Part shown: positions 11,371-57,666 of the stretch, piece by piece | Position numbering within the stretch: position 1 is the stretch's first letter | Layout of the letters: each line of letters begins with the position of its first letter | Assembly: GCA_011774835.1 (NCBI GenBank) | Contig: JAACAK010000113.1 | Span: 5,029-69,028 of the forward strand | Length of the DNA: 64,000 bases | DNA from: Candidatus Kutchimonas denitrificans | GTDB taxonomy: Bacteria > Gemmatimonadota > Gemmatimonadetes > Palauibacterales > KS3-K002 | Direction: 5' to 3' | Translations under genes and position numbers: made by a program | Notes under the pieces: generated by a model | What the model was told of the DNA's origin: nothing | Database searches by the model: none | Seen by the model: only the letters and a program-made list of their open reading frames with translations

Positions 11371-14016
11371 TCAGTAATGGAAGCGGAGCGAGACCCCGAA
11401 CGTTCGCGGCTGGTTGGTCAGGTAACCCACGCGGGCGAGGGTTCCCCGCTCCCGGTCCAGCGCCAGGAAGGCTCGCTCGTCCGTCACGTTGTTCGCGAAG
11501 ATCGCCGCCTCCCAATTCCCGCGGAGCAAGCCGACGCGCAGGTTGACGAGGTTGTACGCCGGCAACAACGGATCGAAGGTAAACGTGGTCTCCGTCAGCG
11601 GCCCACCTAGGGTGTTCGGTTCGAACGCGGTCAAGTCCACGGTACCGATGCCCGGCCGGTGGTCGCCGATCTCCGTGAAGCGCGAGCCGATGTGGTGGTA
11701 GGTCCCGGTGACGAAAGCCCGGGTCCCCCGACTCACCGGCCACTGATACGTGGCGGCGGCGGTCACCTGGATCTCCGGCACGCTGGGCAGGCGGTTCCCC
11801 TCCTCGATGCCCGATACCACGTTCCCGGCCCCGTCTAAGAAGGTCGAGCGCAGTTCGGAGTCGTTGAAGGCGGCCGCGACGGAAAAGTCGAAGTTATCGG
11901 TGGGGTTGGCCGTGACCTCTAACTCCACGCCCTGGCTGCGTGCGCTCTCCACGTTCAAGACCTTCCGGGAGGAGCACGTTCCCGCGGTCACGGTCAACTG
12001 GAGGTCGCTGATGTCCATGTAGAACGCGGACACGTTGAGCGAGGCGCGGCCGCCCAGCAGCCTCGACTTGGCTCCCACCTCGTAGTTCCACGCCGTCTCG
12101 TCTTCCCAAGTTTCCAGCGGGCTGAAAATCTCCAGATCCTCGGGCGTGCACAGCGGAACGTTGAGGGGATCGTTGATCCCGCCCAACCGGAACCCCCGCG
12201 ACGCCTGGGCGTTGAGGGTGAGATCCTCCGTCGCCTGGTAGCTGGCGATGAAGCGCGGTGCCAGGCCGTCGGCGTCGGTGGAGCCGGGCTGCGACACCAG
12301 CGAGTCTCCGGTGCCGTCGTTGCCGAAGATTCCGTCGAAGATCTGGTCGCGGTTCTCGTCGAAGTTGTAGTAGCGCAGTCCGCCGGTGAGCCTGAGCTGC
12401 TCGACCGGGGTCACGGTCGCCTCGCCGAAGACGGCGAACTGCTCCAGGTCGTAGTTCAGGTCGGAGAAGAACAGCTCGTCCTCCTGGGCCTGGAGCCCCT
12501 CGGTAAAGCCAGGCGGGGCGCCAAGCTCCGGCGCTGCCATCTCGTCAAACCCGAAGACGATTAGGCTCTGGCCGTATTCGCGTTTGTTGTTGCTGTAGAA
12601 GCCGCCGACCAGCCACTGGAGCCACTCGTTGCTGCCCGACAGCCGCACCTCCTGGGTGAACACCTTGCTGATCGTGGCGTCGTCCAGCGGTGAGTCGAGC
12701 GTGTAGATCGGCTCCGAGAGGCCGAGAGAGCCGCCGGTTATGCTGGAGGTCAGGGCGCCGGCGTCGCGCACCACCAGGATGTCGCGGTAGGTGTAGGACG
12801 TGACCGAGGTCAGGCTCGCCGGTCCGAAGTTGTACTCCAGGTTCAGATCGGTGAGCAGGAAATCATCGGTGAAGGGCTCCCCGATCTGGGTGAAGAGCTC
12901 GCGTTCGCCCAGGTTCACCGCGGGCCGTGTAGTGGTGAACGGGTTGGCCAGGATGTTGTAGTCGTCGATGCGGTTCCAGCCGTCCATCTTCACCCTCTGA
13001 TAGACGACTCGCGGAGTGATCGAGAAGCGTTCGTTCGGGACGATCCGAAACGCGGCACGCACGCCGGTCCGGTCGCCGCCGTTGACGTTCTCGTTGACAT
13101 CCAGGTTGGGCTGCACCGCGTCCATATAGCCGCCGATCCGGCTGCTGTAGCCCGCCACCCGAAAGGCCGCCTTGTCGCCCAGTGGCACGTTGGCGCCGAT
13201 CTTCGCGCTGTTGCCCGGGTCCCCCCCGTCGATCCAGTTGGCGCCCACCTCCCCGAAGACGCTGTACACGCCGAGCTCGGGCTGGTTGGTGATGTAGCGG
13301 ACGGTGCCGGACAGCGAGCCGGAGCCGAACAGGGTACCCTGCGGGCCGCGCAGCACCTCCACGCGGGAGACGTCGAACAGGTCCAGGTCAGGTGTGTACA
13401 GGGAGAGCGAGATGGCCGCGTCGTCCAGATAGGCGCCCACCTGCTCTTTCACGCCCGGCTGGTCCCGGGCGATCTGGCCCGAGGAGGCCCCGCGCATGGC
13501 GACCTGGCTCTGGCCGGGGCCCAGGTTCTGCACGCTGAACCCGGCCACGTTGGCTGCAACGGCCTCGATGTCCTCAGCACCCCGCGCCCGCAGGACGTCC
13601 CCGGTCGGGGCGGCGATGGAGAAGGGGACGTCGGCCAGCTCCTGCTCGCGGAGCATGGCGGTGACGATGATCTCGTCGAGCACCACCGGCCCCAACTCGA
13701 AGTCTACCGTGACCGTCTCGCCAGCCGCGACCTGAACGTCCCTCTGCGTCCGTCGGATTCCGATCAACGACGCGGAGACGGTGTACACGCCCGGAGCCAG
13801 GTCGCTGAAGGTGTAAGTGCCGTCGGCGGACGTGGTCGTGGTTCTGGAAGCGTCGGTGGCCTGGTTGGTCACCTCGACGGTGGCTCCCAGCACTCCGGCA
13901 CCGTCGGGGTCGCGTACCGTACCGGTGATCCGGCCGGTTTGCGCGTACGCCGGGACGCCATGAAGGACGACGGCCAGGGCAGCAAAGGCCAATAGCCGGC
14001 TCACGGGGCTAACCAT
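11371..14016 (-). CDS. TonB-dependent receptor with N-terminal carboxypeptidase-regulatory-like domain
   Basis: Signal peptide 'RLLAFAALAVVLHGVPAYA'. 'GRITGTVRDPDGAGVLGATVEVTN...DGTYTFSDLAPGVYTV'. Plug and barrel motifs, with an aromatic C-terminus '...SLRFHY'. The ATG at 14016 is preceded by GGGAGGG. Confidence 0.9.
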   Translation of the reverse strand: MVSPVSRLLAFAALAVVLHGVPAYAQTGRITGTVRDPDGAGVLGATVEVTNQATDASRTTTTSADGTYTFSDLAPGVYTVSASLIGIRRTQRDVQVAAGETVTVDFELGPVVLDEIIVTAMLREQELADVPFSIAAPTGDVLRARGAEDIEAVAANVAGFSVQNLGPGQSQVAMRGASSGQIARDQPGVKEQVGAYLDDAAISLSLYTPDLDLFDVSRVEVLRGPQGTLFGSGSLSGTVRYITNQPELGVYSVFGEVGANWIDGGDPGNSAKIGANVPLGDKAAFRVAGYSSRIGGYMDAVQPNLDVNENVNGGDRTGVRAAFRIVPNERFSITPRVVYQRVKMDGWNRIDDYNILANPFTTTRPAVNLGERELFTQIGEPFTDDFLLTDLNLEYNFGPASLTSVTSYTYRDILVVRDAGALTSSITGGSLGLSEPIYTLDSPLDDATISKVFTQEVRLSGSNEWLQWLVGGFYSNNKREYGQSLIVFGFDEMAAPELGAPPGFTEGLQAQEDELFFSDLNYDLEQFAVFGEATVTPVEQLRLTGGLRYYNFDENRDQIFDGIFGNDGTGDSLVSQPGSTDADGLAPRFIASYQATEDLTLNAQASRGFRLGGINDPLNVPLCTPEDLEIFSPLETWEDETAWNYEVGAKSRLLGGRASLNVSAFYMDISDLQLTVTAGTCSSRKVLNVESARSQGVELEVTANPTDNFDFSVAAAFNDSELRSTFLDGAGNVVSGIEEGNRLPSVPEIQVTAAATYQWPVSRGTRAFVTGTYHHIGSRFTEIGDHRPGIGTVDLTAFEPNTLGGPLTETTFTFDPLLPAYNLVNLRVGLLRGNWEAAIFANNVTDERAFLALDRERGTLARVGYLTNQPRTFGVSLRFHY

Positions 14017-15298: not shown

Positions 15299-17374
15299 AT
15301 GAGCCAGGATCTCGAGCCCAAACAGTACGGAGTCCGTCCGCCGCCCGAGCTCAACCCGCGAACCGACCCTGTGCTCGACTTCCCCGACGCCGACTACGGC
15401 GAGCTCGAGCCCGAGGATTACCGGACCCTGGGGTTCATGTCGGGTCTCGAAGTCCATCAGCAGTTGCTCACGAGATCGAAGCTCTTCTGCCGTTGCCCGG
15501 CGGGCCGCTACGTGGACGAGTACGACGCCGAGGTGCTGCGCCACATGCGGCCGACGCTGAGCGAGCTGGGCGAGTACGACGGCACGGCGCTGATGGAGTT
15601 CAAGACGCGGAAGGAGATCGTCTACCAGCTGGAGCGGGGCTCGGTCTGCACCTACGAGATGGACGACACTCCGCCGTTCGAGATCGACGGAGAGGCGGTA
15701 CGGATCGCCATCGAGATCGCCGAACTCCTCGACCTCAACCTGGTCTCCGAGCTCCACGTGATGCGGAAGCAGTACCTGGACGGATCGATCCCGACCGGGT
15801 TCCAGCGAACCGCGATGGTCGGGCTGACCGGGACGATCCCGTTTCGGGTCCCGGAGCTGGGTGTGAACCGCGAGCTGCGCATCCGGCAGCTGTCGCTGGA
15901 GGAGGATGCTTGTCGGGAGATCGCCGACGTCGGGCACTACATCACGTTCCGCACCGATCGGCTGGGCATGCCGCTCACCGAGACGGTGACCGAGCCGGAT
16001 CTGGCGAACCCGCTCGAGGTGCAGGCCGCCGGTCGGCTGCTGGCCCGGGTGGTGCAGGCGACGGGGAAGGTGCGGCGCGGGCCGGGCGCGGCGCGGCAGG
16101 ACGTGAACGTGTCGGTGGCGGGCGGCCGGCGGATCGAGATCAAAGGGGTGGACAACCATCGTAACCTGCCGCGCCTGGTCCACGTCGAGGCGTACCGGCA
16201 GCTGAACCTGCTGCGGGTGCGGGCCGAATTGCAGAATCGAGGCGTCGATCCCGAGATGCTGACGGTTCCGGAGACCGGGCTGCCCTGGGAAGTCACCCCG
16301 CATGCCGTCGACGCGGCCTCGGCGGTCAGCCCGTGCGAGTACGCGCCGATCCGCGATGCGCTGGAACGCGAAGAGAAGGTGATCGGCGTGCGGCTGCCGG
16401 GATTCGGCGGCCTGCTGGGCCACCGGACCCAGCCGGGCGTGACCTTCGCCCGGGAGTTCGCCGATCGGATCCGCGTGATCGCTTGCCCGGTCCATCGGCC
16501 GTTCATCATCCATTCCGATTTGACCGACTACGGGCTCGACCCCCGACAGTGGCGGGCCCTGAGCAAACAGCTCCGGGTCGAGCAGGGCGACGTGATGGTG
16601 GTGGTCTGGATGCCGGAGTCCGACGCGGCCACCGCGGTGCGGGAGATCTTCATCCGGGCTCGGGAGGCGCTGGTCGGGATCCCGGCGGAAACGCGGCAGG
16701 CGTTCAGCGACGGGACCACGGGGTTCGAGCGGATCCTACCGGGCCCCGACCGCATGTACCCGGACACCGACACGCCGCCGGTGCGGATCCGCGACGAGCT
16801 GGTTCTCGAGGTCCGGGAGGGTCTGCCGGAGACGCCGTGGGCGCGTGAATCACGCTACGAGGCGCTGGGGCTCGACCCGGAGCCGGCGCGGCGTCTGGCT
16901 GCGGCACCCTGGGCGGAGCTGTTCGACGCCCTGGCGCCCGCGCCGGGTGCCCCGGCCCGCCGGTTCGCCGACGTGCTCGAGACACGGATCCCGCACCACC
17001 GCCGGAACGGCGCCATCGACTATCTGCCGTCGGCGCAACGTCTCGACCCGCTGGTCCGTGCGGTGGAGAGCGGCGCGATTCGCCCGGAGGCGATGGAGCG
17101 GGCCCTAGACGATCTGATCGACGCGCCCGATCGGTCGGTCGATAAAGTGCTGGCACCGTATCGCCCGGGGCCGGATGACGACGCCGAGCTCGAGCGTGCG
17201 GTCGCGGACGCCGCCGCTCGTGCCGAGGCGCTGGCGGGCAAGCCGGCGGAGGCGGTGTTGCGCTGGGCGATGGGCGAGGTGATGCCCCGATTTCTGGGCC
17301 GGGTCGATCCGTCCCGGGTGCGGCAACGCTTGATCGCAGCGCTGCAGCTGGCCGGAACGGAGGTGGCCGGATGA
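15299..17374 (+). CDS. gatE: Archaeal-type Glu-tRNA(Gln) amidotransferase subunit E
   Basis: 'YRTLGFMSGLEVHQQLLTRSKLFCRCP' matches the GatE N-terminus. GatB/YqeY-like tail 'LRWAMGEVMPRFLGRVDP'. About 690 aa. The stop overlaps the gatD start (ATGA at 17371-17374). Confidence 0.8.
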   Translation: MSQDLEPKQYGVRPPPELNPRTDPVLDFPDADYGELEPEDYRTLGFMSGLEVHQQLLTRSKLFCRCPAGRYVDEYDAEVLRHMRPTLSELGEYDGTALMEFKTRKEIVYQLERGSVCTYEMDDTPPFEIDGEAVRIAIEIAELLDLNLVSELHVMRKQYLDGSIPTGFQRTAMVGLTGTIPFRVPELGVNRELRIRQLSLEEDACREIADVGHYITFRTDRLGMPLTETVTEPDLANPLEVQAAGRLLARVVQATGKVRRGPGAARQDVNVSVAGGRRIEIKGVDNHRNLPRLVHVEAYRQLNLLRVRAELQNRGVDPEMLTVPETGLPWEVTPHAVDAASAVSPCEYAPIRDALEREEKVIGVRLPGFGGLLGHRTQPGVTFAREFADRIRVIACPVHRPFIIHSDLTDYGLDPRQWRALSKQLRVEQGDVMVVVWMPESDAATAVREIFIRAREALVGIPAETRQAFSDGTTGFERILPGPDRMYPDTDTPPVRIRDELVLEVREGLPETPWARESRYEALGLDPEPARRLAAAPWAELFDALAPAPGAPARRFADVLETRIPHHRRNGAIDYLPSAQRLDPLVRAVESGAIRPEAMERALDDLIDAPDRSVDKVLAPYRPGPDDDAELERAVADAAARAEALAGKPAEAVLRWAMGEVMPRFLGRVDPSRVRQRLIAALQLAGTEVAG

Positions 17375-41775: not shown

Positions 41776-42771
41776 ATGTCGCGGGGCGAGGAACGCGGTG
41801 GCGACGGTGGCGACGGTGGCGACGGGGGCGGCGGCGAGCTGACGGCTGGCGTTCGCTACATGCTGGCCAGCGCCTTCTTTTTCAGCCTGATGAGCCTGCA
41901 GGTCAAGCTGGCTGGCCGGGGGCTGCCGAGCCAGGAGGTGGTGTTGGCCCGCGGCGTGGTGACGCTGGTTCTCAGCTACGGGCTCGTGAGGCGGGCCGGC
42001 CTGTATCCCTGGGGCCGCCGCCGCTGGATCCTCATCCTTCGCGGCGCCCTCGGCTTCGGGGCCCTTTCCTGCTTCTATTTCGCCCTCACCCGGCTGCCGA
42101 TCGCCGAGGCGACGGTCCTGCACTTCACCAACCCGTTGTGGACCGCGCTCCTGGCCGCGCTCTTTCTGGGCGAGCGGCTCCACCGCTGGGTCGTGGGTCC
42201 CATCCTCGTGAGCTTCGCGGGCGTGCTGCTGATCACGCGCCCGGGGCTGCTGTTCGGGGGCGCGGCGGCGGCGATCGATCCGCTGGGTGTGGGGGTGGCC
42301 CTGGTGGGCGCCCTGCTGAGCGCGGGCGCCTACGTGGCGGTCCGGGAGGCGGTGAAGACCGAGCACCCGCTGGTGGTCGTCTTCTTCTTTCCCCTGGTCA
42401 CGGTCCCCGCGACGCTGCCCTTCGTTTCGAACTTCGTCTGGCCCACCGGGCTGGAGTGGCTGTGGCTGATCGGGGTCGGGGTGAGCACGCAGATCGCACA
42501 GGTGTATCTGACGCGCGGGCTGAGCCTGGTCCCCGCCGGCCGGGCGATGGCGATCGGCTATTCGCAGATCGTGTTCGTGACCGTCTGGGGTCTTCTATTC
42601 CTGGGGGAGTACCTGAGCGTCTGGAGCGTGGCGGGATCGCTGCTGGTGGTGGCCGGGACGCTGGCGGTAGCGATGCGACGCCGCATGGCGTTGCCGGGGG
42701 CGGCGCACACCGAACATCCGGGCTACACCGACTCGGACGAACGCGACGCGCGGCCCGCCGCGACGGACTGA
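41776..42771 (+). CDS. EamA/DMT-superfamily transporter
   Basis: About 10 TM helices with duplicated EamA pattern. Gly/Asp-rich N-terminal tail; the start is uncertain. Confidence 0.75.
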   Translation: MSRGEERGGDGGDGGDGGGGELTAGVRYMLASAFFFSLMSLQVKLAGRGLPSQEVVLARGVVTLVLSYGLVRRAGLYPWGRRRWILILRGALGFGALSCFYFALTRLPIAEATVLHFTNPLWTALLAALFLGERLHRWVVGPILVSFAGVLLITRPGLLFGGAAAAIDPLGVGVALVGALLSAGAYVAVREAVKTEHPLVVVFFFPLVTVPATLPFVSNFVWPTGLEWLWLIGVGVSTQIAQVYLTRGLSLVPAGRAMAIGYSQIVFVTVWGLLFLGEYLSVWSVAGSLLVVAGTLAVAMRRRMALPGAAHTEHPGYTDSDERDARPAATD

Positions 42772-42783
42772 GAGAGCTCTGGT

Positions 42784-43575
42784 TTATTCCGCGTCCGGCT
42801 TCAGCGCGGTCATCATCACCGCCTTGACCCCGAAAGCCTCGGCGGAATTCTGTGTCGACTCCTTGCGGAACCGAAAGCCCGGCACGGGCGCCGAGCGGAC
42901 ACGGGTGAAGCCAGCTTCTTCCAGCAGCCGGAACATCTCTCCTTCCAGGAGAGCGCCGCCGATTCAGCTGGCCCAGAGCTTGGGGTCGTTGACGATCGAC
43001 TGCGAGAGCTGCTTGGCGCTCACGATGTCGGTGATCGAGATCCGGCCGCCCGGCTTCAGGACGCGGAACATCTCCTCGATCACGCGGCGCTTGCGGAACG
43101 AAAGATTGATGACGCCGTTCGAGATCACCACATCGACGGAGGCGTCAGGGAGCGGGATGTCCTCCATGCGGCCTTCGTGGCATTCCATCGACGTGCCCGT
43201 CGTGGCCGCGTGAGCCTGCGCCTTGAGGCACATGGCAGGATTCAGGTCGATCCCGATCACCTTGCCGGTCGGACCCACGCTCCGGGAAGCGATGATCGGG
43301 TCCAGGCCGGCCCCGCTACCCAGGTCGAGCACGGTCTCGCCCGCTTGCAGGTTCGCCCGCTCGTGCGGGTTCCCGACCCCGGCGAACGACTCCACGGCGC
43401 CGGGGGGCGCCTCATCGAGCCATTCGGGCCTGTACTCGAAGAGCTCCGCCGCCTCCCGGCCGTGGAAGAAGTGGAACTCGGCGTCCGGGTTGTCCGCGAC
43501 CTCCTGGTACATGCGGACGATCTCGTCCTTGAGCTGGGCCTCCAGAGAGGCCTGAGCCTCGACGGCGTCGGTCAT
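42784..43575 (-). CDS. ArsM/UbiE-like SAM-dependent methyltransferase with in-frame TGA (42964-42966) read as selenocysteine (candidate selenoprotein)
   Basis: SAM motif 'VLDLGSGAGLD'. '...DPKLWAS[TGA]IGGALLEGEMFRLLEEAGF...' aligns with 'EAWSGCLAGALHEDEYRTKLAGAGF' of the ArsM gene at 54678. The frame stays open with coding-like codon bias to the TAA at 42784-42786. The start is the ATG at 43575 or 43587; the ORF-track version (42964..43689) is truncated at the TGA. Confidence 0.65.
42937..42953 (-). promoter_or_regulatory. SECIS-like hairpin 10 nt downstream of the in-frame UGA
   Basis: The mRNA reads CUCUCCU-GGA-AGGAGAG, a 7-bp perfect stem with a G-containing apical loop. The loop starts about 21 nt from the U of the UGA. 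Confidence 0.45.
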
Positions 43576-43729
43576 GGCTATCCCCATAACGAGAGTTTGA
43601 TTTGCCACCGAGCTAGTGGGTGGGACGGTGGCATCCGGCCGCGGTGCGGCGGTCAGCCAGCCGGGCCGAGCGGACCGGAGCGCAAACAACTTACCCGGTA
43701 AATGGCGGTTGGCAAGAACCCCGCGCCGC

Positions 43730-44262: not shown

Positions 44263-44625
44263 CTAGATCCGTTCCGGGTCAGGAACCGTTCGTTCGTTCT
44301 TCAGATTGCCGGTATTGAGGGTCGAGCCCGGCTCGAACAGCAGAACGTGCACTTCTTCCGGCGCCACCGGCAGGTGCTCCACCCCCCGTGGGATGACCAC
44401 GAGCTCTCCCTCGTCGAGCCAGATGTCCCGGTCGCGCAGCTTGATGCAGAGCCGACCTTTGACGACCAGGAAGAGCTCGTCCTCGTCATCGTGATGGTGC
44501 CATTCGAACTCACCCTCCAGCTTGGCGAGCTTCACCTGGTAGTCGCCGATGTCGCCGACGACCTTGGGGCTCCAGCGCTCGTCAAACGCGGCGAACTTCT
44601 CCGCCAGGTTCACCTTACCGATCAC
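44263..44625 (-). CDS. Cupin-domain protein
   Basis: 'EFEWHHHDDEDELFLVVKGRLCI...GELVVIPRGVEH' contains the cupin motifs. The GTG at 44625 is preceded by GGAG and overlaps the rhodanese gene end by 11 nt. Confidence 0.75.
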   Translation of the reverse strand: MIGKVNLAEKFAAFDERWSPKVVGDIGDYQVKLAKLEGEFEWHHHDDEDELFLVVKGRLCIKLRDRDIWLDEGELVVIPRGVEHLPVAPEEVHVLLFEPGSTLNTGNLKNERTVPDPERI

Positions 44626-46390
44626 GGTCGCTCCGTTGTGAGGCGGCCACCTCGATCGGCAGCGATTCGATCGCCGACCAGTCGGTCCACGAGGGGAAGT
44701 AGACATCCACGTTGGCGTAGCCGAGCAGGTTCCGCAACGCGAAGTAGACGTGGCTCGCTTCGGTGCCGGTGTTGCAGTACAGGATGACGTGCTTGTCCGG
44801 TGTGATCCCCTGCGCCTCGTAGCTGGCGCGCAGCTCGTCCAGCGGCTTCCAGATCCGGGTCGACCCGCTCGCCATCAGATCGCTGCTCCAGACGTGGTTC
44901 ACCGCGCCGGGGATGTGTCCGCGGCGCATCTGATGGCCCGCGCGACCGGCGTACTGAGCTTCGGGCCTAACGTCGACGATGACCATCCGGTCTTCGTCCA
45001 GCGAATACTCGACCAGCCGCCGGGTCGCCCGGTCGGGGCGGAACCCGTCGGCGGCGAACGACGTCTCTTCGATCGCCGGGTAGGCCCTGGCCGTCGGCCG
45101 ATCTTCGGCGAGCCACTTCTCGTAGCCGCCGTCCAGCAGGTAGACCTCGGTGTGGCCGAAGCCGTTGAGGATCCAGGCGAGAAACGTGGCGTCGAAGTTC
45201 GCGCCGGCGGCGTTCGAGTAGATCACGACCGGCCGCTCCAGCGAGAGGCCGTTCCGTGAGAAGAGGGCCGCGTACGACTCGGCGGACAGGATGTCCGCCG
45301 GCACGCCGCGGTTAGTTGCCCGGAGGTTCTCGTAGTGCAGGTAGATGGCGCCGGGAATGTGCCCCTCGAGATACCCGACGAAGTCGGACCGCAGGTCGAC
45401 GATGCTGACGGCCTCGTCGCCGGCCAGCAGTGCGGCCAGCTCGTTGGTGGAGATCAGCCTGGAAAAGTCCTCGACCGCGGGGCGTGCCACCGCCAGTTGC
45501 GGCCGGTTGCTCCACTCCTGGAACGAGCCGTCGTACACCCGGGCATCGTAGCCCAGCAGCCGTGCGGCGAACCAGACGAGGGTCGCCTGCTGACCGATAT
45601 GGCAGTAGGTGACCACTTGGTCGCCGCGATTGGCGCCGGCGGCGATGAACATCCCGCGCAGCGTCTCGAGGTCCTTGAACCTGTCCGTCTCCTCGTCGAC
45701 GATGGTGACGTACGGGATGTTGGCGGCGCCGGGGATGTGCCCGGCCCGGGGCATGCCGTGGCCGCCGCGGGTGCCGCGGTAGTAGTGGGACGTTCGGGCG
45801 TCGATGACAGCCACGCCGTCGTCGTCCAGACGGTCGGCCAGCCAGTCGGCCTGGGCGATCAGTGCCGGTCGGGGGCGCGGCGTGATGGAGCCGCGGGACG
45901 CGGCCGTCGGGACGTCGCGGCTAACCGGGTGACCCGCCGCCCGCCAGGCATCGATGCCGCCGTCGAGAACGGAAGTGCGAGCGCCGAGACCGAGGTACTC
46001 GAGCGTCAGGTACACGCGGGTCGTGAGGGTAACCCAGCCATCGGCGAAGTAGAGGACGATGCGGGAGTCGTCGGATACCCCGAGCTCCTCGAACGCCGAC
46101 CGCAGCTGGTCGACGGGCGGCATCTCGAGTCTGAGACCCTCGTCGGATGATTGGGAGATCGCCGAATACAGGACGTAGCGCGCTCCCGGGATGTGCGCTC
46201 CCTCGTAGCGTTCCCGGTTGCCGAGGTGCAGCAGGACGAGGTTCTCGTCGTCGAGGTGCTCGGCCAGCCAGTCGACGCTCACGACCATATCGGCACGACC
46301 CTCATCGACCTGCGCGCCTGCGGCCGAAGGGCCGACGAGGATCGCGAGGGAGAGTCCGAGCACGATGGCGGGGATAGGATGCTTACGCAT
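44615..46390 (-). CDS. Exported four-domain rhodanese-like sulfurtransferase (two inactive+active tandems)
   Basis: Signal peptide 'AIVLGLSLAILVGPSAAGAQ'. Active-site loops 'YCHIGQQAT' and 'YCNTGTEAS'. The two other domains have non-Cys loops ('YFADGWVT', 'YSNAAGAN'). Confidence 0.85.
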   Translation of the reverse strand: MRKHPIPAIVLGLSLAILVGPSAAGAQVDEGRADMVVSVDWLAEHLDDENLVLLHLGNRERYEGAHIPGARYVLYSAISQSSDEGLRLEMPPVDQLRSAFEELGVSDDSRIVLYFADGWVTLTTRVYLTLEYLGLGARTSVLDGGIDAWRAAGHPVSRDVPTAASRGSITPRPRPALIAQADWLADRLDDDGVAVIDARTSHYYRGTRGGHGMPRAGHIPGAANIPYVTIVDEETDRFKDLETLRGMFIAAGANRGDQVVTYCHIGQQATLVWFAARLLGYDARVYDGSFQEWSNRPQLAVARPAVEDFSRLISTNELAALLAGDEAVSIVDLRSDFVGYLEGHIPGAIYLHYENLRATNRGVPADILSAESYAALFSRNGLSLERPVVIYSNAAGANFDATFLAWILNGFGHTEVYLLDGGYEKWLAEDRPTARAYPAIEETSFAADGFRPDRATRRLVEYSLDEDRMVIVDVRPEAQYAGRAGHQMRRGHIPGAVNHVWSSDLMASGSTRIWKPLDELRASYEAQGITPDKHVILYCNTGTEASHVYFALRNLLGYANVDVYFPSWTDWSAIESLPIEVAASQRSDRDR

Positions 46391-53952: not shown

Positions 53953-53973
53953 ATAGTTGTCACCAACAACTAT
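53953..53973. promoter_or_regulatory. Perfect 8-bp inverted repeat ATAGTTGT-N5-ACAACTAT in the marR promoter region (putative MarR operator)
   Basis: It lies 14 nt upstream of the marR ATG, in an AT-richer patch containing TATA-like hexamers, between divergent genes. Confidence 0.5.
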
Positions 53974-53986
53974 TAACGGAGCCCGT

Positions 53987-54502
53987 ATGAGCATCCTTCA
54001 GCAAACCACGACTCGACATGATCCCAATTCCTCGCTGGAAGCCGACGCACTCGCCCTACACCGGGTGCTGATCGAGCTGAAGCGGGCCTATCAGTTCCGG
54101 GACCGGGAATGCATCTGCTGCTACGACGTGTCGGTCACCCAGTGCTGGGCGCTGGAGGCGCTGGTCCGGTGCGAGGTCCTGACGCTGAACGAGCTGGCGG
54201 CGGAGCTCTACCTGGAGAAGAGCACGGCGAGCCGGGTGGTGAGCGCGCTGGAGCGGAAGGGTTACGTGGAGCGTGCCCGGCATCCGGAAGACGGACGGGC
54301 GCTGGCGTTGCGGGCGACGGAGGGGGGGCGACGTCTGTACCGTGACATCGAGCGGGACCTGCTGGCGCAGGAGCGCGAGCTCCTGGAGGAGTTCGATCCG
54401 CAAGTGAGGGGGGCGATGGTCGAGCTGCTGGGAGGGCTGGCCGAGGCGGCGAATTCGAGGCTGATCGCGGAGGATGGAAAATGTTGCAGCTTGCCCAGAT
54501 GA
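53987..54502 (+). CDS. MarR-family transcriptional regulator
   Basis: Winged-helix 'LTLNELAAELYLEKSTASRVVSALERKGYVERARHPEDGRALAL'. ATG at 53987 with GGAG upstream. Confidence 0.85.
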   Translation: MSILQQTTTRHDPNSSLEADALALHRVLIELKRAYQFRDRECICCYDVSVTQCWALEALVRCEVLTLNELAAELYLEKSTASRVVSALERKGYVERARHPEDGRALALRATEGGRRLYRDIERDLLAQERELLEEFDPQVRGAMVELLGGLAEAANSRLIAEDGKCCSLPR

Positions 54503-54677: not shown

Positions 54678-55511
54678 ATGAAAAAGATAGAAGACATCCG
54701 TGAGGCGGTGCGCGAGCGCTACGCCACGGCAGCCAAGCGAGCGGCGGGGGCGGAGCGAGCGAGTTGCTGCGGCCCTGGAGAATCCAGCTGCTGCGCCGGT
54801 TCCGGCGAGGAGGACGTGATCACCCGGGACCTGTACACGACTGAGGAACTGGCGCAGGTAACCGATTCGGCAGCGCTGGCATCGCTGGGCTGTGGAAACC
54901 CGACGGCGCTGGCCGAGCTTAGTGAAGGCGAGGTGGTGCTCGATCTGGGTTCGGGCGGTGGGATCGATGTGCTCCTGTCCGCGCAACGTGTGGGCCCAAC
55001 GGGCAAGGCCTATGGCCTGGACATGACGGACGAGATGCTGGAGCTGGGGCGCCGCAACCAGCGGGAGCTGGGGATAGATAATGCCGAGTTCCTGAAGGGC
55101 ACGATAGAGGAGATCCCGCTACCCGATGAGAGCGTGGACGTCATCATCTCGAATTGCGTGATCAACCTATCGACGGACAAGGATCGGGTGCTGGGAGAGG
55201 CGTACCGAGTGTTGCGTCCGGGGGGACGGCTCGCGGTATCGGATGTCGTCTTTCAGGGGGAGGTGCCCGCGGCGGTGAAGGAAAGCATCGAGGCATGGAG
55301 TGGATGTCTGGCCGGTGCGCTACACGAGGACGAGTATCGTACGAAACTCGCCGGAGCCGGGTTCGTAGATATCGATGTGGAGATCACTCGAGCTTACGGT
55401 GCCGAGGAGCTTCGACTTCTCGGCCGCGAGTTCGGCGTCGAGCTGGAGGACGCCTGGCTGGAGCAGGGGCGGTTTTCGTCGGCGTTCGTGCGGGGACGAC
55501 GACCGGAGTGA
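54678..55511 (+). CDS. arsM: Arsenite S-adenosylmethionine methyltransferase (canonical all-Cys form)
   Basis: 'VLDLGSGGGID' plus the conserved cysteines 'SCCGPGESSCCAGSG', 'LGCGNP', 'ISNCVINL' and 'WSGCLAGAL'. Confidence 0.88.
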   Translation: MKKIEDIREAVRERYATAAKRAAGAERASCCGPGESSCCAGSGEEDVITRDLYTTEELAQVTDSAALASLGCGNPTALAELSEGEVVLDLGSGGGIDVLLSAQRVGPTGKAYGLDMTDEMLELGRRNQRELGIDNAEFLKGTIEEIPLPDESVDVIISNCVINLSTDKDRVLGEAYRVLRPGGRLAVSDVVFQGEVPAAVKESIEAWSGCLAGALHEDEYRTKLAGAGFVDIDVEITRAYGAEELRLLGREFGVELEDAWLEQGRFSSAFVRGRRPE

Positions 55512-55590
55512 CGTCGACCCACCGTAGCCGCCGACCGGTGTGGACTATTGCGACCCGGGGCGAGGGCTGAGTAATCTCCCCGGGTTTGCC

Positions 55591-57666
55591 ATGGATAATT
55601 CCTATATGATTGCAGGTGTGCTCGAGCGCGCCGCCCGCAGCTTGCTGCGTCTGCCCGCGCTCTTCTTTTGGGTCGGCTGGGTCGCCGCGGCGCCGGCCGC
55701 GGCGCAGGAGCCGCAGGACACGACCGCACGCGACACGCTTCCCCTCGACACGGTCTACGTCGAGGAGATCAAGGTGACTGTGGCGCGGCCGGTGACGACG
55801 GCGGGCGGTGCGGCGGCCGTGGCGGTGGCCCTGGACTCGGTGCGCTCCGGGCCGTCGCCCACGCTGGCCGAAGTTCTGCGAGACCTGCCGTTGATCCAGG
55901 TGCGGGAGAACAGTCGTGGCGAAGTGCAGCCGTCGGTGCGCGGGATGGAATCGCGGCGCGTGGCGGTACTGGTGGATGGTGTGCCGATCACGTTGGGTTG
56001 GGACGCCCGTACCGACCTGTCGGTGGTGCCGCTGACGGCGGCGCGGCGCCTGACGCTGGTGCGGGGTCTGTCGTCGGTGCTGTACGGACCGAACGCGCTG
56101 GGCGGAGCGGTGCTGGTGGAGATCGGGGAAGGGGAGGGTCGCATCCTCGGGCCGACGCCGCTGCAGATGAGCGCCGGGGTCGACGACGAGGGCAACAACG
56201 CCGTGGCCCTCGGCCTGTCCACCCTGGTCGAGACCAACTCCGGCGAGCTGCTGTTGCGGGGCGGCGGCGGCTACCGCAAGCGCTCTCACTGGCCGGCCCC
56301 GTCGGGAGTGTCGATCCCGGGCGGCGCTTCGACCATCCTCAACAGCGACCTGGAGCACGGCAACGGGTACGTGTCGGCCCGCTACCAGACCGACGGGGGC
56401 GCCTGGTACGCCCTGTCGTCTTTCGGGTTCGTGGCGGAGAAGGGTGTGCCGCCGGAGCTCCATGTGGCCGAGCCGCGGCTGTGGCGGTATCCGAACACGT
56501 GGCGTTGGGTCACCGCGCTGTCGGCGGGAACCGGCTGGAAAGAAACGCCCTGGGGGGAGGGCGATCTTGAGGCCAGCATCGGCATCGATTTCGGCGAAAC
56601 GGAGATCGACACCTACGAGACTCTGGCCTACGACTCGATCACCGGGGGCGAGCGAGGAGACGACCGAACCCTGTCGCTCCGTCTGCTGGCCGATCATTCC
56701 CTGGGCGCCGGCATTCTCCGCAGCGCCCTGACGCTGGCCGAGTCGCGTCACATCGAGATCATCGACGACGGCGACCCCAACAGGTATCGCCAGAGGTTCC
56801 TGAGCTTCGGGCTCGAGGCCGAGCAGCCGATCATGAGTGACGCCGACGGACGTAGGGCCCGGCTCTCGGTCGGATTCAGCGTGGATGGGTCCGACACGCC
56901 GGAGACGGGCCCGGCCGAGCCCCGCGACGCCATCTGGGCCTGGGGCGCCCGCGCCGGCGGCACGCTGGTGCTGGCCCGTGGCGACCTGTTGCTGAACGGC
57001 GGCGTGAGCCGCCGCGTGCGTTTCCCGGCGCTGCGCGAGCTCTACTCCGGTGCCCTGGGGCGCTTCGTGGTCAACCCGACGCTCGATCCCGAGGTCCTGG
57101 CCGTGGCCGAGCTGGGAGCCACCTTCCGGTTCGGAGCGCTCGAGGCGCAGACGGTCACTTTCTATCAGCGGCTCAGCGACGCGATCGTTCGGGTCAGCCT
57201 GGGTGACGGCAGGCTCCAGCGCCAGAACCGCGATCGAATCACGAGCGCCGGACTCGAGGTGCTGCTGGATCTGACCGTTGGCCGGGCTTCCATCACCGGA
57301 AACACGACGATTCAGAACGTGGATCTGACGGATCCGACCGCCCCGCAGGAGCAGCGCCGCCCCGAGTACCAGCCGTGGTTCATCGGTGGGGTGGGCACCT
57401 CGCTGCGTCTGGGGAACGGCTTCTGGACGGCGGTCAACCTCGAACACATGGCGCCGCAGTTCTGCGTCCACCCCGACCTGGGTCGCGAAGTGAGGTTGGC
57501 CGCGAGCACGTGGCTCGACCTGCAGCTCGGCAAGACCCTGATCGTTGGCGGTCGGCGATCCGAGGCGACCCTGGCCGTCAACAACGTCACCGATTCGTCC
57601 GTCTTCGATCAGTGCGGCCTGCCGCAGCCCGGCCGGGTCTTCAGGTTGCAGCTCCGTCTATTTTGA
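55591..57666 (+). CDS. TonB-dependent receptor
   Basis: Signal-like N-terminus and a plug region ('LIQVRENSRGEVQPSVRGMESRRVAVLVDGVPI'). The barrel ends '...VFRLQLRLF'. Start uncertain (55540 or 55591). Confidence 0.85.
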   Translation: MDNSYMIAGVLERAARSLLRLPALFFWVGWVAAAPAAAQEPQDTTARDTLPLDTVYVEEIKVTVARPVTTAGGAAAVAVALDSVRSGPSPTLAEVLRDLPLIQVRENSRGEVQPSVRGMESRRVAVLVDGVPITLGWDARTDLSVVPLTAARRLTLVRGLSSVLYGPNALGGAVLVEIGEGEGRILGPTPLQMSAGVDDEGNNAVALGLSTLVETNSGELLLRGGGGYRKRSHWPAPSGVSIPGGASTILNSDLEHGNGYVSARYQTDGGAWYALSSFGFVAEKGVPPELHVAEPRLWRYPNTWRWVTALSAGTGWKETPWGEGDLEASIGIDFGETEIDTYETLAYDSITGGERGDDRTLSLRLLADHSLGAGILRSALTLAESRHIEIIDDGDPNRYRQRFLSFGLEAEQPIMSDADGRRARLSVGFSVDGSDTPETGPAEPRDAIWAWGARAGGTLVLARGDLLLNGGVSRRVRFPALRELYSGALGRFVVNPTLDPEVLAVAELGATFRFGALEAQTVTFYQRLSDAIVRVSLGDGRLQRQNRDRITSAGLEVLLDLTVGRASITGNTTIQNVDLTDPTAPQEQRRPEYQPWFIGGVGTSLRLGNGFWTAVNLEHMAPQFCVHPDLGREVRLAASTWLDLQLGKTLIVGGRRSEATLAVNNVTDSSVFDQCGLPQPGRVFRLQLRLF

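Follow-up and report, generated by a model that had tools for sequence, protein, structure and literature searches.

A probable selenocysteine codon within an ArsM-like methyltransferase gene of a clade centred on Gemmatimonadota

Described relatives and the gene in the window

For the 'arsenite methyltransferase' family that contains selenocysteine (Sec), Fomenko et al. (Science, 2007) is the study cited. The family, with its Sec motif UxxG (U for Sec), is counted among the experimentally verified prokaryotic selenoprotein families in two reviews (PMC13188914; PMC9312934), and Peng et al. 2016 list it for 39 organisms. The gene considered here lies on the minus strand of a 64,000-nt stretch of a Candidatus Kutchimonas denitrificans contig (JAACAK010000113.1, positions 5,029 to 69,028; the whole stretch is called the window below). 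It encodes an ArsM-like S-adenosylmethionine (SAM)-dependent methyltransferase with an in-frame UGA codon at 42964-42966, and we conclude that this codon very probably encodes Sec, i.e., that the gene is a selenoprotein gene. The first-pass annotation, made from the letters of the window, had pointed to Sec-containing SAM methyltransferases in marine surveys; such a family is indeed listed in the sources above, but it is absent from the Global Ocean Sampling (GOS) marine table.

With the published family the gene shares ArsM-like sequence, a single UGA, the U-x-x-G motif (U-I-G-G here), and Cys at the Sec position in homologues. This likeness is drawn from the motif and the listing of the family, whose published representative is WP_011987699.1. 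The clade to which the gene belongs differs in being mostly from Gemmatimonadota, Longimicrobiales, and Eisenbacteria, in having its own invariant pair of Cys residues, and in being annotated everywhere as a 203-aa protein. Other described relatives are the multi-Sec fusions modelled in NCBIfam, namely NF041537 (ArsM/AhpD), NF047649 (methyltransferase/UXPK-star), and NF041536 (ArsM/DUF2284), which PMC13188914 credits to Haft & Tolstoy 2025 and for which it reports the same UxxG motif. Their methyltransferase domain is homologous to the present protein (179-208 bits over ~225-240 residues). In contrast to these fusions, however, it has a single UGA, neither an AhpD nor a DUF2284 domain, and no U-X-P-K-stop end. 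The kind of protein is known; the novelty lies in a large and highly conserved clade, centred on Gemmatimonadota, that stands outside every curated model.

Reading frame, UGA conservation, and the downstream hairpin

The minus-strand open reading frame (ORF) runs through ...IVNDPKLWAS to the TGA at 42964-42966, continues as IGGALLEGEMFRLLEEAGFTRVRSAPVPGFRFRKESTQNSAEAFGVKAVMMTALKPDAE, and ends with the TAA at 42784-42786. Between the two codons there are 59 sense codons with no internal stop, as the first-pass annotation had also translated them; the residues directly after the UGA are IGGALLEGEMF, and the protein terminates with ...LKPDAE. Clean coding GC at third codon positions is found on both sides of the TGA, which agrees with the earlier claim of a shared coding signal. 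As for the start, position 43587 had been proposed, but homologues favour the second ATG at 43575 (MTDAVEA...), which is backed by more than 100 homologues of 203 aa and is preceded, 5 nt upstream, by a Shine-Dalgarno-like GGGGA. Counted from 43575, the product has 203 aa ahead of the UGA and 263 aa in total, including Sec204. The convergent EamA transporter ORF ends at 42771, and read-through shortens the intergenic gap from 192 to 12 nt, close to the ~190 and 12 nt given previously. The elements of this gene model are as follows.

42784..43575, minus strand: full-length coding sequence of the predicted ArsM-like SAM-dependent methyltransferase selenoprotein, 263 aa (translation, homologue starts, conserved read-through in 160/160 loci)
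42964..42966, minus strand: in-frame UGA, read as Sec residue 204, motif U-I-G-G (UxxG) (conservation, alignment with Cys)
42937..42953, minus strand: candidate hairpin of selenocysteine insertion sequence (SECIS) type within the ORF (RNAalifold, covariation, low third-position entropy)
42947-42953, minus strand: 5' arm of the hairpin, CUCUCCU
42944-42946, minus strand: loop of the hairpin, GGA
42937-42943, minus strand: 3' arm of the hairpin, AGGAGAG
42787..42963, minus strand: 59-codon C-terminal extension, predicted as helix, beta-6, helix, beta-7 (pN/pS, AlphaFold2 model, alignment of Cys homologues)

Public records describe a shorter protein. The NCBI entry for this same gene (P0001, 'methyltransferase domain-containing protein') has 203 aa, and of the 120 database matches that rank highest, more than 100 also end at residue 203; these matches are exactly 203 aa long, 82-100% identical, and all finish with ...KLWAS. 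The only full-length top match is P0002 (271 aa), whose protein record shows 'W' at the UGA column. Such records, together with an ATG-initiated ORF of 50 aa at 42784-42936, favour the view that the TGA is a genuine stop, with a functional 203-aa protein followed by a separate small gene (e.g., from ATG 42936) or a regulatory element. The DNA behind the records argues strongly otherwise. For the comparison 80 loci were taken from 80 species-level genomes, mostly metagenome-assembled genomes (MAGs) of Gemmatimonadota, Gemmatimonadales, Longimicrobiales, and Candidatus Eisenbacteria, along with 80 metagenome contigs, which with the window gene gives 161 sequences; the protein search covered 5.8 billion predicted proteins.

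The comparison directly establishes a conserved recoding site followed by a translated extension. The UGA column holds TGA in 81/81 sequences from the window and genomes and in 80/80 metagenome sequences; neither TAA nor TAG occurs there. The terminal stop, by contrast, can be any of TGA, TAG, and TAA, with TGA in about half of the orthologues. In every related locus (n = 160) the column TGA is followed by 55-67 in-frame sense codons conserved as protein, and the extension is free of stops in all 81 sequences of the window and genomes. Codons +1 to +9 (IGGALLEGE), which precede ATG 42936, are conserved as protein and in frame in 161/161 sequences. The pairwise ratio of nonsynonymous to synonymous differences (pN/pS) is 0.20 for the extension vs 0.18 for 180 upstream codons. 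Taking into account also that the extension matches the C-termini of uninterrupted Cys homologues and that its strands belong to one continuous, confidently predicted domain (see below), a genuine stop appears highly improbable.

The same data bear on whether the gene could be a pseudogene, or the UGA codon a product of faulty sequencing or assembly. A lone in-frame stop in a MAG contig could be an error, and one contig (L084) has an in-frame deletion of this segment. However, 160 loci from independent assemblies have the identical TGA, and the sequence on either side of it is under purifying selection, which effectively refutes this explanation.

Two irregular copies were observed among the related loci. 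In L084 (14-676; P0110, JGI contig Ga0452205_079796) an orthologue has a clean in-frame deletion of 63 nt (...KLWA|KRVKSAVV...), which takes out the Sec codon, the hairpin, and the next helix; this copy has either degenerated or been misassembled. In L033 (~12,100-12,300, plus strand; Gemmatimonadales MAG CAVPRU010000002.1) there is a second, partial copy of the methyltransferase (NSNGVINLSF...NDPKLWAC-TGA-TGG...), which stops just past the TGA, has unrelated sequence on both sides, and is a gene fragment or an assembly chimera.

In bacteria, location within the ORF, size, distance from the UGA, and a G-rich loop start are SECIS traits, and the minimal SECIS of E. coli fdhF is a 17-nt upper stem-loop ~11 nt past the UGA. 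The hairpin CUCUCCU-GGA-AGGAGAG (42953-42937), which the first-pass annotation had placed correctly, has 17 nt with a 7-bp stem and begins 10 nt past the UGA. The likeness to fdhF that had been noted therein thus holds for the 17-nt size, the in-ORF position with a spacing of 10-11 nt, and the G at the apical loop start, but not for the details of the loop, which are considered with the other counter-evidence below.

That the hairpin is conserved and covarying is established directly by an alignment of 81 sequences (window and 80 genome loci). The RNAalifold consensus contains its six inner pairs and no other structure. Stem cells are standard-paired in 99.3% of cases, and shifting the partner by 1-3 columns lowers this to 53-76%. 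At the loop-closing pair, 54 sequences have U-A, 21 have C-G, 5 have U-G, and none is unpaired. The remaining three variable stem positions show only changes to G-U wobbles. In protein terms, the U-to-C change of the closing pair turns Leu into Pro at codon +6 (CUG to CCG) and is always found alongside a synonymous GAA-to-GAG change opposite, at codon +7. The combination of Pro and GAG (42946-42950 and 42941-42943) occurs in 48/161 sequences, and CCG with GAA never occurs. According to a neighbour-joining gene tree from which the hairpin codons were left out, U-to-C arose independently at least 5 times. The 80 metagenome contigs show an identical variant set with 0 C-A mismatches. Synonymous change is suppressed as well: third-position entropy is lower at codons +4 to +9 than in any other six-codon window of the gene (0.22 bits vs a gene mean of 1.14). 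The rare codons GCT (81/81) and GGA (80/81) are fixed in the hairpin, whereas all four synonyms are freely used at the two Gly codons immediately before it. The RNA structure constrains the protein here, since Leu-to-Pro is tolerated only together with a synonymous change that restores the base pair, which makes the gene a clear example of a SECIS, as we read the hairpin, constraining coding sequence.

Fold, active-site residues, and family placement

The read-through protein matches the Pfam families Methyltransf_31, Methyltransf_25, and Methyltransf_11. An AlphaFold2 model was built for the orthologue P0002 (77% identity) using an alignment of Cys homologues, and its mean predicted local distance difference test (pLDDT) value is 93.7, with values >90 throughout the extension. 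Secondary structure elements of the extension in this model are helix 219-229, strand 232-238, helix 248-256, and strand 259-266. The model therefore predicts that the extension supplies beta-6 and beta-7, the final pair of strands in the sheet of the class I methyltransferase fold, and a 203-aa product would miss both of them because it is the extension that builds these strands. An ArsM-like fold is directly evident from the structure comparison, in which the best PDB matches are CmArsM, CrArsM, and human AS3MT (template modelling (TM) score ~0.7), and the top 13 fold matches are all ArsM or AS3MT structures. The motifs used in the comparison with these proteins are the following.

43306..43332, minus strand: SAM-binding motif I, VLDLGSGAG, residues 82-90 (Pfam matches, invariant in the clade)
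43366..43389, minus strand: SFAGVGNP, equivalent of the ArsM 'GCGNP', with Val for Cys72 of CmArsM (alignments with PDB ArsM chains and the window ArsM)
43102..43125, minus strand: ISNGVINL, equivalent of the ArsM 'ISNCVINL', with Gly for Cys174 of CmArsM (alignments with PDB ArsM chains and the window ArsM)

In the alignment to solved ArsM chains the UGA lines up with the Cys in 'lygeCLGGAL', which corresponds to the As(III) ligand Cys224 in CmArsM, and this Cys/Sec pairing is likewise seen directly in other comparisons. The canonical ArsM of the window (54678-55511) reads LGCGNP, ISNCVINL, and WSGCLAGAL where this gene reads FAGVGNP, ISNGVINL, and WAS-TGA-IGGAL. The first-pass annotation had made the same alignment and had proposed that the UGA replaces a catalytic or As-binding Cys while the other conserved ArsM cysteines are missing; both statements agree with our alignments, including those with distant homologues. 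The positions of Cys72, Cys174, and Cys224 thus hold Val, Gly, and Sec, i.e., the third position alone is retained. The description of the residue as a 'lone Sec' is apt for the canonical As-binding positions, but the clade also has Cys116 (NPxMC) and Cys132 (MEC), which are invariant within it and do not lie at canonical ArsM Cys positions.

When 1.84 billion cluster representatives were searched exhaustively with HMMER, two kinds of relatives were found at ~40-45% identity: full-length proteins and proteins of ~205 aa that end at the UGA column with ...DLWTG. Among 22 full-length homologues aligned (~40% identity), 21 have Cys at this column. These uninterrupted Cys homologues run past the column, and the extension aligns with their C-termini. 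The ~205-aa relatives probably represent further Sec clades. Both kinds have SFAG(V/T)GNP and ISNGVxNL and hence no equivalents of Cys72 and Cys174 of CmArsM. The other clades truncated at the UGA column share the SFAGxGNP and ISNGVxNL motifs, but the present clade is only ~40-45% identical to them.

Compared with canonical ArsM and AS3MT proteins (CmArsM 4FR0/4FSD/6CX6, human AS3MT 8XT7, and the window ArsM), the protein shares the fold (TM ~0.7), the SAM motifs, the ArsM-type N-terminal region, and the alignment of Sec204 with the As(III) ligand Cys224. It differs in the Val and Gly at the Cys72 and Cys174 equivalents and, with respect to CmArsM, in having no C-terminal domain (263 aa vs ~380 aa). 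Since Val and Gly replace these cysteines, a two- or three-thiolate As(III) site cannot form from the canonical positions.

Some single-Cys or Sec relatives (P0133, P0149, P0138, P0140, and P0122) are fused to other domains, among them TusA-like domains, membrane segments with an HMA-like metal-binding domain, and AhpD with a second canonical ArsM domain. These fusions hint at sulfur or metal handling in the wider family. The closest named Cys homologue, from Halomonas, led to MddH, an H2S/methanethiol methyltransferase. This candidate was rejected: MddH is a 24-kDa TMT1-like protein of the UbiE family with no ArsM-type N-terminal region, and a related paper on Actinomycetota makes no mention of ArsM.

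Decoding, substrate, and genomic context

According to the mechanism that we consider best supported, SelB with Sec-tRNA(Sec) would decode UGA 42964-42966 as Sec204, having been recruited by the 17-nt hairpin at 42937-42953, within the ORF and 10-11 nt past the UGA. The product would be a 263-residue class I SAM-dependent methyltransferase of the ArsM/AS3MT type. By analogy with published ArsM structures, Sec204 would occupy the substrate-binding position of Cys224, adjoining the methyl group of SAM. Failed Sec insertion would leave a 203-residue product without beta-6 and beta-7, presumably inactive. SelB dependence and selenium incorporation are what we infer from the recoding site, the hairpin, and the Cys/Sec pairing.

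Several observations weigh against this reading. Neither a tRNA-Sec (ARAGORN, window and 80 genome loci) nor SelA, SelB, or SelD (tblastn with E. coli proteins, window, 1.1 Mb of genome loci, and 0.4 Mb of metagenome loci) was found. This blank is uninformative rather than negative, because ~1 chance hit is expected in that much DNA. The single-sequence fold of the hairpin region is no better than those of shuffled sequences (z = -0.96), its lower stem is not conserved in the 81-sequence RNAalifold consensus, and an Rfam scan of the region gave no match to a SECIS family. The case for the hairpin thus comes from the comparative data, i.e., the consensus, covariation, and suppressed synonymous change. 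In comparison with the fdhF SECIS, the loop has 3 nt (GGA) and is not of the GGUC type, there is no bulged U, and no conserved lower stem was found here. Nor does the protein reach the curated cutoff of any NCBIfam model for ArsM or ArsM selenoproteins: it scores 212.1 bits for NF008823 (ArsM; cutoff 263, with 340.8 for the canonical ArsM of the window), and 208, 183, and 179 bits for NF041537, NF047649, and NF041536 (cutoffs 510, 460, and 575, respectively). Finally, there is no conserved neighbourhood that would indicate the substrate. A literature search on Sec use in Gemmatimonadota returned nothing useful.

The blank for Sec machinery in the window and 160 loci would also fit UGA read-through without selenium, with Trp, Cys, or Arg inserted by a near-cognate tRNA under stimulation by the hairpin, or with TGA used as a sense codon. 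In line with the latter, one gene caller gave Trp at the TGA of the orthologue P0002. The DNA of P0002 has TGA at this column, however, and the Trp is a gene-calling artefact of a 989-bp contig that was translated under a code in which TGA means Trp. About half of the orthologues also have TGA as their terminal stop. The window (GC 66.6%) was scanned with a crude filter for in-frame TGAs that have coding-type GC at the codon positions on either side; 2 sites passed, which implies that TGA is not a general sense codon here, and an alternative genetic code was rejected, the scan of the 64 kb showing ordinary stop usage. The sole other site past the filter (16850-16852, minus strand, with 84 and 37 codons on either side) has an atypical codon-position GC of 0.90/0.58/0.83 and is likely an off-frame artefact. 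Moreover, the column carries Cys, not Trp, in homologues, and an established selenoprotein family shares the UxxG motif. Selenium-free read-through is thus considered very unlikely, and Sec remains the preferred assignment.

A second candidate selenoprotein gene was observed in a Longimicrobiales MAG (CBDDEN010000008.1; L045, 16603-17223, minus strand), alongside the methyltransferase. It is a peroxiredoxin/redoxin-like ORF with an in-frame TGA (FYRGHW-TGA-PWC, UxxC) and a possible hairpin ~20 nt downstream of the TGA. The W-U-P-W-C arrangement fits the known peroxiredoxin-like UxxC type, so that this is likely a selenoprotein gene, which lends indirect support to Sec decoding in a related MAG.

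As for the substrate, a single selenolate at Sec204 might bind a substrate that is a soft metalloid or chalcogen, perhaps in the form of a thiol adduct, and present it for methyl transfer. Known ArsMs are said, from the Rosen laboratory, to require at least the equivalents of Cys174 and Cys224. Canonical arsenite methylation is doubtful here because only one of these two is kept, and judged by sequence the three-thiolate form of the reaction is unlikely. The remark of the first-pass annotation that this is probably not a standard arsenite methyltransferase appears reasonable in view of the missing Cys72 and Cys174 equivalents. More tentatively, and with somewhat less than even chances in our estimate, the clade, together with the single-Cys relatives (SFAGVG / SNGV / LWAxC), may be something other than arsenite methyltransferases, namely a distinct, abundant soil and sediment enzyme that methylates another substrate. 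Selenide, tellurium species, sulfide or thiols, or an already thiol-bound metalloid might then be methylated, and Cys116 and Cys132 would serve an auxiliary role.

In the 80 genome loci the methyltransferase gene has no conserved neighbour. Neighbouring rhodanese, cupin, and EamA genes occur only in this window, and ArsR-rhodanese and SQR-like genes occur in only 5-6 loci. In the window, the gene at 44615-46390 (minus strand), 1 kb upstream of the selenoprotein gene, encodes a protein of 591 aa that contains four rhodanese domains and has a signal-like sequence at its N-terminus; this gene adjoins a cupin gene (44263-44706), an association seen in 0/80 related genome loci. A MarR-family regulator gene (53957-54502) closely precedes the canonical three-cysteine arsM (54678-55511, plus strand), and a TonB-dependent receptor gene (55540-57666) comes after it. 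The genome thus has a standard arsM beside the Sec paralogue.

Identity within the clade is 80-89% across MAGs. Orthologues that are 80-88% identical are placed in MAGs of Gemmatimonadota, Candidatus Eisenbacteria, Acidobacteriota, Akkermansiaceae, and Acidimicrobiia, and one database match carries a Bipolaricaulota assignment. The scattered phyla and the lack of a common neighbourhood suggest horizontal transfer, mis-binning, or both.

The value of the finding lies chiefly in correcting the annotation and in flagging an ArsM-like enzyme of uncertain substrate. Current records of 203 aa leave out both the catalytic Sec and two of the strands that make up the fold, and annotation pipelines will go on truncating the clade because no curated selenoprotein model captures it. 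Counting the gene as arsM in surveys of arsenic cycling may mislead, since one of three arsenic ligands is kept. For the organisms themselves, the gene implies Sec decoding in uncultured Gemmatimonadota, Longimicrobiales, and Eisenbacteria of soils and sediments.

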